From an uncultured delta proteobacterium (GTDB lineage: Bacteria; Desulfobacterota; Binatia; JACPRU01), in NCBI GenBank assembly GCA_963745025.1, contig CAVUWD010000016.1, forward strand, positions 544,001 to 608,000: a stretch of DNA of 64,000 nt, written 5' to 3'. Made by a program: the position numbers and the translations under genes. The notes under the pieces are model-generated. The model had not been told where the DNA came from. It did no database searches and saw only the letters and a program-made list of their open reading frames with translations. Below are positions 20,973-23,810 of the stretch, piece by piece; position 1 is the stretch's first letter; each line of letters opens with the position of its first letter.

Positions 20973-21926
20973 TCACGCGCTGGCGCGCGGCGTCTGACGG
21001 TAGCCGAGATACACGGCCCCACCTGCGACGCCCGCGAGCATCACGACGGCGAACCAGGTGAGCGCGAACGCGATCGCCGACTCCCGGGAGATGCCGATGT
21101 GCGCGAGGAAGAATACGTATCCACCTTCGCGAACGCCGAGGCCGTTCATGCTCACGGGGATCGCCGCCATGATGTTCACCAACGGCCCGAGAATGAAACA
21201 GTAGGACCACGGCACGGCGAGTCCGAGCGCCCGCGTGAGGATCATCAAGACGCCGATCTGCGACAGGTGAAACATGAAGGACAACGCGCCGATGTCGATC
21301 AAGAGCCGACGGTCATTCCAGTACGGGTGAAGGTCCTGCTCGACGAGCCGACGCAGGCGGTTCTCTCGGGGCAACACCGCCGGCAGCACCCGCGGCAGCA
21401 GCCGCCAGCCGCCGAGCAGCGTGGAGGCCAGAACGATCACCCCCCAGTAAATCCAGGCCGGCAGGTCGTAGTGGTGAAACAGCACGAGCGCTCCGAGCGC
21501 GATTGCGAGCAGCACCGCGAGACCGCTCACGCGGTCCGCCACGACGGTATTGAGGGCGAGCCCGCGCCGACCGTCCTGGCCCGCGAGATAGAGGGCGCGC
21601 ACCACGTCCCCCCCCACCGTGCCGAAGCCGAACGCGTTGAAGAACATGCCGATGAAGTAATACGCGATGAAGCGCGGCAGACTCGCGCGGAAGCCGACCG
21701 CGGAAGCGAGCCGGCGCCACTTGATCGCCGAAAGCAACTGCCCGGCGAGGTAGAGCGCCAGCGCGGCGCAGAGCAGCGCGCCGTCGGCGTGAGCCAGGAA
21801 GCGGCCGATCTCCGCGAAGTCCACACGGCGAGAGAGATACACGAGCAGACCGGCGCTGACGGCGATCTTGATCCCGAGCTTCCAGGAAGTCGCCGCCGCG
21901 CGCGCCCCGAATTCTTGCGCAGGCAC
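20973..21926 (-). CDS. LPG-synthase-TM / UPF0104 flippase-like membrane protein
   Basis: SAIKW, YFIGMFFN..GTVGGDVVRA, DRVSGL and IPVSMNGLGVREG. Confidence 0.85.
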   Translation of the reverse strand: MPAQEFGARAAATSWKLGIKIAVSAGLLVYLSRRVDFAEIGRFLAHADGALLCAALALYLAGQLLSAIKWRRLASAVGFRASLPRFIAYYFIGMFFNAFGFGTVGGDVVRALYLAGQDGRRGLALNTVVADRVSGLAVLLAIALGALVLFHHYDLPAWIYWGVIVLASTLLGGWRLLPRVLPAVLPRENRLRRLVEQDLHPYWNDRRLLIDIGALSFMFHLSQIGVLMILTRALGLAVPWSYCFILGPLVNIMAAIPVSMNGLGVREGGYVFFLAHIGISRESAIAFALTWFAVVMLAGVAGGAVYLGYRQTPRASA

Positions 21927-22034
21927 ACGCGGCTTCTATCGGGAACGCCGCGAAATGAAAACGTGCACTCCGCGTAAGGCCAGTGTAAGGCTTCAGTTTT
22001 TGCAAGAACTCACCAAGGCCGTCGCACAACGATC

Positions 22035-22202
22035 AGCGCGCGTGTTTGTGTTCGAGCCGTACTCGGATCGAACACAAACACGCGCCACCGCGCGAAGCGC
22101 GGAACGGTTCGAGCCGCGCCTTGGGTATCGCGTTCCGCGCTTCGCGCCGCGGCGTGGGTTGGCGGTCGACCCGAATACGGCTCGACCGCCAACCCACGCG
22201 CT
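22035..22202. other. Structured intergenic element with three long perfect hairpins
   Basis: Stems 22038-55/22068-85 (18 bp), 22090-106/22131-147 (17 bp) and 22152-69/22182-99 (18 bp), each checked base by base. Confidence 0.85.
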
Positions 22203-22313
22203 CTTCCTTGTTCCGCACAGTGCGGTAGCCGTCCTCCGGCAGAAGCTGAGGCCCTACCACCCCGGCTCGCGCCGCGGCTTGGCAGTGCCCGCGAGTTGGC
22301 CTATAGCTCGCGC

Positions 22314-23810
22314 ATGAGCATGGGCCGGACGCTCCGGCGAATCGCGCTGGTCGAGCCTCCGTACGTCTTCTGGGATCGGAGAATGGATCGGCTGCGCCAG
22401 ACCGAGGAATCGATTCCGGGAATCGGCATGCTGGTGTTGGCGGCCGTCGCGCGGCGCAACGGATACGACGTCGCGATCTTCGACGCCAAGGGCAGCGGCG
22501 AGACGCCGGGCGGCGTCGCGGATCGCATTCTCGCGTTTCGACCGGACGTCGTCGGCTTCTCGGCGACCACGATCTCCATCACCAACGCGGCGCGGATCGC
22601 CGGGCTTCTCAAGCGCTCCGTACCCGAGCTCGTCACGGTCGTCGGCGGGCCGCACGTGAGCGCAGTTCCCGAACGCACGCTCGCCGCCTTCCCGAATCTC
22701 GACTATGCCATCATCGGCGAAGGCGAGATCTCCTTCTTCGAGCTTCTCGAACGTCTGCGCTGCGGGCGTGCGATCGAGGGGTGCCCAGGCCTCGTCCATC
22801 GAACGCCTGCGGGTGAGATCGTCGCCAATCCGCGGTCCCCCTACCTCACCGATCTCGACGCCTTGCCGCTCCCGGCCTGGGATCTCGTCCGCGGATTTCC
22901 GCACGGCTTCCATCCGTCGCTCTTCAGCTACCGGAGGTCGCCGGTCGCCACGCTGGTCACGAGCCGCGGTTGTCCCTTCTCGTGCTCGTTCTGCGACCGC
23001 TCCACGTCGGGCAAGCTCGGCCGTTACCACACCACGGAGTCGGTGCTCCGCCACTGCCAGCACCTCGTCGACTTCGGCGTGCGGCACATCATCTTCTACG
23101 ACGACCTCTTCACCGTGAAGAAGAAGCGCGTCGTCGAGCTCTGCGAGGCATTTCTCGCGTGTGGTTTCGATTTCACTTGGAGCTGCAACAGCCACCCGAA
23201 CCTTCTCGACCCGGACACGCTGCGGCTGATGAAGCGGGCGGGTTGCTGGCAGATCGCCTACGGAATCGAGTCCGGTTCACAGCGGATCCTCGACGTGGTC
23301 AAGCGCGAGGTGAGTTTGCCCCGAATGCGCGAGACGCTGCGCATGACCCGTGCCGCCGGCATTCGCGCCAAGGGCTACGTGATGATCGGTCACCCGACGG
23401 AGACGTTACAGACGCTCGAGGAGACCGCGGAGTTTCTCAAGATCGTCGAGCTCGACCTCTGCCAGGTGACGAAATTCACCCCGTACCCGGGCACTCCCGC
23501 CTACTCGACGATTCGCGAGTTCGGCCGCTTCGACGAAGATTGGGAGCGGATGAACGCCATGAACTTCGTGTTCATCCCGAGCGGTCTGAACGAGGAAATC
23601 CTCGAAACCTACTTCCATCGTCTCTATTCGATCTTCTACTGCCGGACCGACGTTCTGCGCGGCATCGCGCGACTGGTCGCGGAGGAGCCGCGCTTCCTCC
23701 GCCAGCTCGGCTCTTCGGCCTGGGTCTACTTGAAATCGCAGTTGCCGGATCGACGCTTCCGCCGCGCGATCTTCGGCAAGCGCGTCGCCCCCGAATCACT
23801 TGCCTCCTGA
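22314..23810 (+). CDS. B12-binding domain radical SAM protein
   Basis: N-terminal cobalamin-binding domain (DVVGFS, VVGGPHVS, GEGE), SRGCPFSCSFC, YDDLF, GIESGS and PYPGT. Confidence 0.9.
   Translation: MSMGRTLRRIALVEPPYVFWDRRMDRLRQTEESIPGIGMLVLAAVARRNGYDVAIFDAKGSGETPGGVADRILAFRPDVVGFSATTISITNAARIAGLLKRSVPELVTVVGGPHVSAVPERTLAAFPNLDYAIIGEGEISFFELLERLRCGRAIEGCPGLVHRTPAGEIVANPRSPYLTDLDALPLPAWDLVRGFPHGFHPSLFSYRRSPVATLVTSRGCPFSCSFCDRSTSGKLGRYHTTESVLRHCQHLVDFGVRHIIFYDDLFTVKKKRVVELCEAFLACGFDFTWSCNSHPNLLDPDTLRLMKRAGCWQIAYGIESGSQRILDVVKREVSLPRMRETLRMTRAAGIRAKGYVMIGHPTETLQTLEETAEFLKIVELDLCQVTKFTPYPGTPAYSTIREFGRFDEDWERMNAMNFVFIPSGLNEEILETYFHRLYSIFYCRTDVLRGIARLVAEEPRFLRQLGSSAWVYLKSQLPDRRFRRAIFGKRVAPESLAS

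Follow-up and report, generated by a model that had tools for sequence, protein, structure and literature searches.

Three hairpins between divergent genes of an uncultured Binatia bacterium are very probably the core of a dispersed MITE with IS66-type ends

Nezha and Chunjie are bacterial MITEs with an identifiable parent IS (Delihas 2011, PMC3184786). They are small and non-coding, with terminal repeats that resemble those of a co-resident IS, flanking direct repeats and a very stable predicted fold; close relatives differ in whether a given site is filled or empty, and the families are confined to narrow lineages. The same text describes bcr1, found between genes in the Bacillus cereus group. 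This mobile repeat is ~155 bp long, is flanked by 5-bp direct repeats and has a cruciform-like fold, whose independent stem-loops are kept by compensatory base changes, with stability lost in some copies; bcr1 is reported to be transcribed and has been assigned no parent IS (PMC3184786). REPs and REPINs (PMC2817692, PMC8266576) are GC-rich intergenic hairpins that form inverted pairs, reach high copy number and show compensated stem variation, and the RAYT gene is flanked by REPs. For the IS66 family and its ISBst12 group, two papers give tips of GTAA or GTGA followed by ...CTCAG, together with an 8-bp duplication (PMC12898284, PMC3281130). Within this group, ISDge4 carries just one transposase gene, its tips read GTGACTACTCAGCA and GTAACTGCTCAGCA, and its repeat is 8 bp long (PMC12898284); an 8-bp direct repeat is tabulated for two Paracoccus IS66 elements (PMC3281130).

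We analysed a window of 64,000 nucleotides (the whole stretch of DNA examined) from the genome of an uncultured Binatia bacterium, in which three hairpins, H1, H2 and H3, lie between two divergent genes. These hairpins are very probably the middle of one copy of a dispersed, non-coding MITE with IS66-type ends. By every sequence criterion tested the element classifies as a MITE, being short and free of a transposase gene, with terminal inverted repeats, an 8-bp duplication, many copies and IS-like tips, although the duplication at the window site is imperfect (6/8), the left tip there carries an 11-nt duplication, and only 23 of the 95 copies allowed both tips to be placed. It resembles Nezha and Chunjie in all the traits listed above for them. 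It differs from them in its IS66-type ends and 8-bp duplication, in having three separate hairpins instead of one long stem, and in that the two outer hairpins have diverged from each other with compensation. Independent stem-loops with compensatory changes are shared with bcr1; unlike bcr1, the present element has 8-bp repeats and IS66-type tips and showed no transcript cover in the one RNA run compared, and at the level of an Rfam comparison the two have no sequence relation. A full-text literature search, with ISfinder outside its scope, found no paper on an IS66-derived MITE.

The coordinates of the features are collected in Table 1. An earlier note on this DNA had described three perfect stems of 18, 17 and 18 bp between divergent genes, with H3 an inverted homolog of H1, and all of this was confirmed: between the 5' arms of H1 and H3 there are 5 differences in 18 positions, each of them compensated so that both stems are perfect, and the 12-nt loop of H1 matches the reverse complement of the H3 loop at 10 of 12 positions. 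H1 is one of 112 family hairpins bearing a CCG-N4-CGG apex. The arms of H2 lie at 22090-22106 (5', GCGCGAAGCGCGGAACG) and 22131-22147 (3'), and homologous central hairpins are present in 38 full-length copies of the family. The heptamer GCGAAGC, to which the note had drawn attention, is indeed found within the H2 stem at 22092-22098, but it is not a conserved feature, occurring in 30 of 95 family loci with either strand counted. The note had also weakly favoured an RNA from the + strand, and here the folding energies point the other way. The 196 nt from 22020 to 22215 fold at -133.1 kcal/mol on the + strand and more stably, at -142.1 kcal/mol, on the - strand; dinucleotide shuffles gave -81.7 and -87.3 kcal/mol, respectively (z = -11.5 and -11.6), and none of the 200 folded as stably as the real sequence. 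A terminator and promoter scan returned four terminator-like matches, none of which is H1, H2 or H3; these are stems of 5-6 bp at 21977-21993 and 22078-22094, and the combination of a GC-rich hairpin with a T run that marks an intrinsic terminator was absent from H1-H3.

Within the window copy, 10-nt direct repeats (GTTCGAGCCG) bound a 57-nt stretch at 22050-22106. One of the metagenome contigs that cross the junctions of this copy, 6,948 nt long and from run X3, carries the window copy minus exactly these 57 nt between the repeats, so that H1 lacks its 3' arm and H2 its 5' arm. This deletion could be a genuine slippage variant or an assembly collapse.

Table 1. Positions of the hairpins, ends and neighbours of the window copy, and of IS and Y1_Tnp features discussed in the text
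Feature	Position	Strand	Basis or remark
Hairpin H1	22038-22055 / 22068-22085	.	perfect 18-bp stem, 12-nt loop GCCGTACTCGGA, apex CCG-TACT-CGG
Central hairpin H2	22090-22147	.	dyad centre of foldback element; perfect 17-bp stem, 24-nt loop
Hairpin H3, inverted counterpart of H1	22152-22169 / 22182-22199	.	perfect 18-bp stem, loop CCCGAATACGGC, apex CCG-AATA-CGG
Left target-site duplication copy, 8 bp, CACTCCGC	21966..21973	.	6/8 match to right copy CACCCCGG
Right target-site duplication copy, 8 bp, CACCCCGG	22258..22265	.	sequence and congener alignment
11-nt duplicated element tip GTAAGGCCAGT, outside canonical left tip	21974..21984	+	read from sequence
Left terminal inverted repeat GTAAGGCTTCAGTTTTTGC	21985..22003	+	aligned with tips of 9 sister copies
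Left linker, terminal repeat to H1	22004..22037	+	conserved in 10 subfamily copies
Right linker, H3 to terminal repeat	22200..22238	+	conserved in subfamily copies
Right terminal inverted repeat, reverse complement GTAGGGCCTCAGCTTCTGC	22239..22257	-	sister-copy alignment
Neighbour gene, outside element: LPG_synthase_TM family membrane protein	20973..21926	-	Pfam PF03706, E = 7.8e-42
Neighbour gene, outside element: B12-binding radical SAM protein	22296..23810	+	Pfam PF02310 and PF04055
1,885-bp IS, three 100% identical copies	C19:80227-82111; C6:484411-486295; C6:486304-488185		DNA comparison
Y1_Tnp (IS200-like/RAYT-like) proteins, 337 and 362 aa	L001:850-1863 (G000 C13); L002:868-1956 (G000 C11)		
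G026 IS-end matches	contigs C45, C15, C70, C26, C37, C31, C10		three at contig ends

The hairpins at 22035-22202 are only the core of a larger unit that spans 21974-22257, and this core consists of hairpins throughout. The ten closest copies align across 21985-22257 (273 nt) and are abruptly unrelated beyond, giving a window copy of 273-284 bp with no coding content. Its terminal inverted repeats are 19 nt long and start GTAAGGC.TCAG. The 11-nt tip duplication outside the left repeat is missing from the other nine copies of the subfamily, which begin at the equivalent of 21985, and it falls within the stretch that is missing in the congener.

The congener (G001, 82% complete) is the one congeneric genome compared, and at the orthologous site its flanks are collinear with the window at 86-87% identity. 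Both flanking genes are kept and the element is absent: ~296 nt (window 21971-22266) are replaced by 2 nt in the BLAST join, and the site carries a single target copy, TACTCGG(T), where the window has the left duplication copy, the element and the right duplication copy in turn. The window element inserted at an 8-bp target, duplicating that target. Contigs of three independent metagenome runs span the junctions between the element and its flanks at this locus. One RNA run (X15) gave a single contig, at 22338-22590 within the radical SAM gene, which leaves the element uncovered and bears neither way on its transcription.

Homologs of the unit, for which the earlier note had proposed a search, are abundant in the window's own genome (G000; 5.65 Mb in 20 contigs). 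BLAST found 89 loci, and three rounds of nhmmer gave 194 strand-hits that merged to 95 loci, amounting to 0.26% of the genome; in a genome-wide scan for long hairpins the family predominates. Most loci (57) measure 150-200 nt and have three hairpins, with 16 at 100-149 nt, 16 below 100 nt and six above 200 nt. A crude GC3-based gene caller placed no ORF call over 73 of the 95. Under a strict ungapped test both tips were placed in 23 copies, and the octamers flanking these are identical at 8/8 positions in seven, at 7/8 in three and at 6/8 in four (14/23 at 6/8 or better), compared with 1 match of at least 6/8 in 506 control pairings of flanks from different copies. Copies with both tips are mostly 250-274 bp long, with short deletion forms of 142-200 bp, and all subfamilies share the inverted-repeat-tip architecture.

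Read from the tip inward, a half-unit comprises a terminal repeat of ~19 nt (consensus GTAATGCCTCAGTCTTCGC), a linker of ~30 nt, a hairpin of ~48 nt with the apex CCG-TACT-CGG, and an inner arm. Two half-units face each other, so that the inner arms pair as H2 and the outer hairpins are H1 and H3. In this reading direction the loop of either half is nearly always TACT-like and the mismatch at pair 5 is G.T; because the halves read alike from the tip, the element is a head-to-head dimer of one half-unit, with H2 at the dyad centre. Among copies, identity to the nearest neighbour is 89.1% at the median and reaches 98.4% (54/61 full-length copies), and this high identity, together with the insertions in the congener described below, indicates recent activity.

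Several variant copies were seen. Short loci with one or two hairpins, such as C11:460384-460446, retain both terminal repeats, and C11:460346-460508 has a single hairpin, a hybrid of H1 and H3, between both terminal repeats; short forms of this kind look like internal deletions by recombination between homologous hairpins. Two copies of the youngest subfamily, C16:85448-85660 and C5:173272-173480, have a common insertion of ~31 nt in the H2 loop that folds as an extra small hairpin (GGTGCTGTCC...GGACAGCACC).

Outside its own genome the family is narrowly distributed. A BLAST comparison of 41 relatives recovered it in two only, G000 and G001, which are two of the eight genomes of the order. 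An exact scan with two motifs over 185,579 species genomes, which may omit records of the window's own genome, gave 79 loci, of which 10 match the family HMM, all in the contigs of one MAG, while the other 69 are chance matches in GC-rich genomes. The same two-motif pattern in metagenome contigs gave at least 120 loci, at least 64 of them family members, and many of these 64 or more are orthologous to copies in G000, with flanks 92-96% identical. The congener has five further insertions (L004/L015, L006/L012, L027, L037 and L084) where the syntenic DNA of G000 has no family locus; for L006, compared with C9 of G000, the MITE is absent but the surrounding intergenic DNA has diverged, so this is not a clean empty site. 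A further insertion, L008/L044, is ambiguous in this respect. Two more of its copies, L010 and L028, sit where G000 also has one, and in these same-site pairs (L010 with C11:119159, L028 with C7:20183) the partners belong to different subfamilies or are truncated.

The genome of the window has four DDE_Tnp_IS66 matches, three of which belong to a single 1,885-bp IS. The IS encodes a 468-aa protein with zf-IS66 and DDE_Tnp_IS66 domains and no IS66 TnpB, and this layout with a single transposase gene is that of the ISBst12 group. Its tips are GTAAGGCCTCAGTCTCCGT, with flanking 8-bp duplications AACGATCG and CTTCTGGA. The MITE tip consensus, built from 62 half-elements, has 16 of its 19 positions in common with the IS tip, and the left and right tips of the window copy each match it at 14/19. 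GTAA tips with 8-bp duplications were seen in two IS66-family ISs, this one and a different IS of 2.4 kb in the congener (L108 on C27 and L109 on C13), which has perfect 8-bp duplications (GAATGAAA, GCAGAGAT) and tips GTAACCGTTCAC as read for one G001 element only. The tip style and the 8-bp duplication of the MITE and the IS agree with published IS66-family traits (PMC12898284, PMC3281130).

Beyond the ~19-nt tip the similarity between MITE and IS stops: none of the IS interior is shared, and the hairpin apex motif is missing from the IS, where its best match has 7 mismatches of 20. Judged by this DNA comparison, the MITE shares its ends with the IS yet is no deletion derivative of it. Tip similarity, equal duplication length and co-residence nevertheless point to a link between the two, in which an IS66-family (ISBst12-group) DDE transposase would move the MITE in trans, with the 1,885-bp IS and its three copies as the candidate source. 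The IS copies are mutually identical, whereas most MITE copies are 70-90% alike, which makes the IS copies recent and most MITE copies older; the historical mobiliser may be another IS66 relative. A DNA search of the congener (82% complete) did not find the 1,885-bp IS, though that genome carries the MITE.

The IS itself shows some further features. On C6:484411-488185 two identical copies lie head to tail, 8 bp apart (CTTCTGGA), and the same 8 bp follow the second copy; this repetition implies either that the second IS went in right beside the end of the first or that the two form a tandem IS dimer. A 105-aa ORF (L019:684-1001, G000 C19, within the IS) lies upstream of the transposase gene, with a DUF6788 score of 27.0 bits against a cut-off of 27.2, and could encode an accessory IS protein. 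In a genome from another family of the same class (G026), the final ~138 nt of the IS, and no more of it, are matched seven times at 90% identity. This points to a related IS, or to a short derivative that breaks that assembly, and also to horizontal spread of the IS.

For the covariation analysis we extracted 114 outer hairpins, 112 of them with the CCG-N4-CGG apex, and numbered the pairs from the loop; the counts come from custom scripts. Pairs 6-22 are Watson-Crick in 88-99% of the outer hairpins. Across 94 distinct hairpins 95.1% of cells are Watson-Crick, compared with 64.8% in 500 column shuffles (maximum 67.2%) and 17-28% when the partners are slid. At 11 of the 17 stem positions there are at least two pair types, each seen in five hairpins or more, and several positions have three or four, as at pair 17 (C-G 44, A-T 40, T-A 18, G-C 7). 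Pair 5 is mostly mismatched (n=112; G.T 38, A.C 32, A-T 35). The covariation is real at the family level.

A stable and covarying structure upstream of two genes could be read quite differently, and the earlier note had raised an undescribed structured ncRNA or leader (cloverleaf, rod or kissing loops). Taken as specific to this locus, it would serve one of the flanking genes. The very stable fold on both strands, the family-wide covariation and the position in a divergent promoter region all fit such an RNA, but we consider it highly improbable, since there are 95 dispersed copies and they occupy all intergenic contexts (tandem 57, convergent 23 and divergent 15, against a background of 2698, 785 and 784), and the congener keeps both genes around the same intergenic region with no element in it. 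Nor is there a strand signal: among stem mismatches G.T is not favoured over A.C (27 against 37), and relative to flanking co-directional genes 13 copies have the same orientation and 8 the opposite (p = 0.38), with 36/57 ambiguous as the element is nearly symmetric. The 11 matches that an Rfam scan at permissive thresholds returned (E of 10 or less) stayed well under the gathering score; the best, VA RNA and BTH_s1, reached 25.2 and 22 bits where the thresholds are 62 and 74, and no known RNA family was assigned. Stems of orthologous copies change at 4.3% of positions compared with 6.2% elsewhere, which is not a significant difference. The many copies, the empty site and the absence of a strand signal led us to reject the ncRNA reading, while the note's view that structure rather than sequence is maintained holds true across the family, given the excess of pairing over shuffled columns. 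Its other suggestion, a REPIN- or MITE-like element, was right as to the MITE kind and wrong as to an ssDNA-hairpin RAYT/HUH mechanism, the type being DDE/IS66 instead. That the hairpins are of REP/REPIN type, recognised as ssDNA and spread by a RAYT (HUH/Y1) transposase, is very unlikely, even though HUH-like and YxxxNP-like motifs are found in two Y1_Tnp proteins of this genome, and the outer hairpins combine a conserved apex with variable, compensated stems in inverted pairs as REPINs do. Where the tips are readable, the hairpins sit inside a unit with terminal inverted repeats and 8-bp duplications, which are hallmarks of DDE and not of Y1 transposition; REPs are not known to have terminal inverted repeats or target duplications. 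A search for copies near a RAYT/HUH transposase found the family loci nearest to the two Y1_Tnp genes 4.7 kb and 26.8 kb away, so that these genes are not flanked by the repeat, in contrast to RAYT genes, which REPs flank; 82 occurrences of the apex motif fall within family loci, and the 20 elsewhere have no hairpin context. At its C-terminus the shorter of the Y1_Tnp proteins (337 aa) weakly matches the DnaA helix-turn-helix. There remains an inverted duplication made by the assembler, an artefact that the note had listed among the findings that would remove biological significance; only the palindromic look of the region speaks for this, and its probability is practically nil in the face of 95 diverged copies in the genome, further copies in another genome and in the metagenome loci, and contigs of three independent runs that cover both junctions of the window copy. 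On the diverged copies, the metagenome family members and these junction-spanning contigs, the artefact was refuted.

With the MITE reading retained, the cause of the covariation is a separate matter, with selection on propagating lineages and templated correction between arms as the two candidates. The compensated differences would arise along lineages of element copies, most likely because hairpin-bearing copies propagate better, for example if extruded hairpins flex the short element so that its ends pair; arm-to-arm templated correction within each palindrome may also contribute. A purely mutational account, in which one arm templates the repair or replication of the other and stems are kept with no selection at all, is possible though on the unlikely side, and several observations suit it. 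Template switching corrects quasi-palindromes. Paralogous copies often differ by compensated doubles: the 82 stem states, joined in a minimum spanning tree, are separated by 66 of them against 78 single-sided changes (24 against 54 on singleton leaves). Copy C2:28832 has mirrored 1-bp deletions on both arms, and the lack of a strand or orientation signal for a functional RNA also counts for templated correction. The youngest subfamily, nine copies that are 97-98% alike, has mismatches in both outer hairpins; at one pair three copies have T-A, five C.A and one C-G, and mismatches inherited from the source in the other hairpin have become pairs in single copies. This subfamily thus spread with mismatches, so perfect pairing was not required for spread and pairs were regained afterwards. 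Ten orthologous pairs at nine loci (G000 against metagenome contigs) contain two compensated doubles where 0.16 would be expected by chance (P = 0.011). These same orthologues also tell against the mutational account, with 18 single-sided changes to those two, although the changes are unpolarised and may restore or break pairs; their pattern differs from that among paralogues (Fisher p = 0.003). Stems differ at 22/510 positions in these pairs and the rest at 242/3934 (p = 0.11), and a comparison of stem and linker rates among paralogous halves, ungapped and gapped, gave no consistent difference, the linker window including some flank. Blanket homogenisation should moreover erase the apex-adjacent mismatch at pair 5, which persists in about two thirds of hairpins, and the pair restored in C16:85448, A.C to C-G, requires a new mutation besides copying.

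The role of the hairpins is putative. A stronger form of the selective account, which we hold to be doubtful, is that the hairpins are active, their integrity raising the rate of copying by a DDE (IS66-family) transposase, either as hinges that would let a ~250-bp element bring its ends together or as a recognised structure, in which case the covariation would reflect selection for transposition competence. If true, this would be a structure-dependent MITE, a DDE-mobilised analogue of the hairpin-dependent HUH elements, and its roughly 100 copies would be a natural data set in which compensatory evolution of DNA hairpins could be measured.

The removal of a false lead, in which a structured 'ncRNA candidate' with covariation is a transposon copy, has a practical side: copies of one mobile element, being paralogous, can imitate the covariation signal on which RNA discovery relies, so repeat status should be checked first. 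At the window locus the element would most likely be a passenger in the divergent promoter region, which the insertion lengthens for both genes by roughly 290 bp relative to the congener, and this may matter for their expression. The finding adds a MITE family with IS66/ISBst12-type ends, from an uncultured lineage, and the family provides material for asking whether DNA hairpins in transposons are kept by selection or by templated repair.
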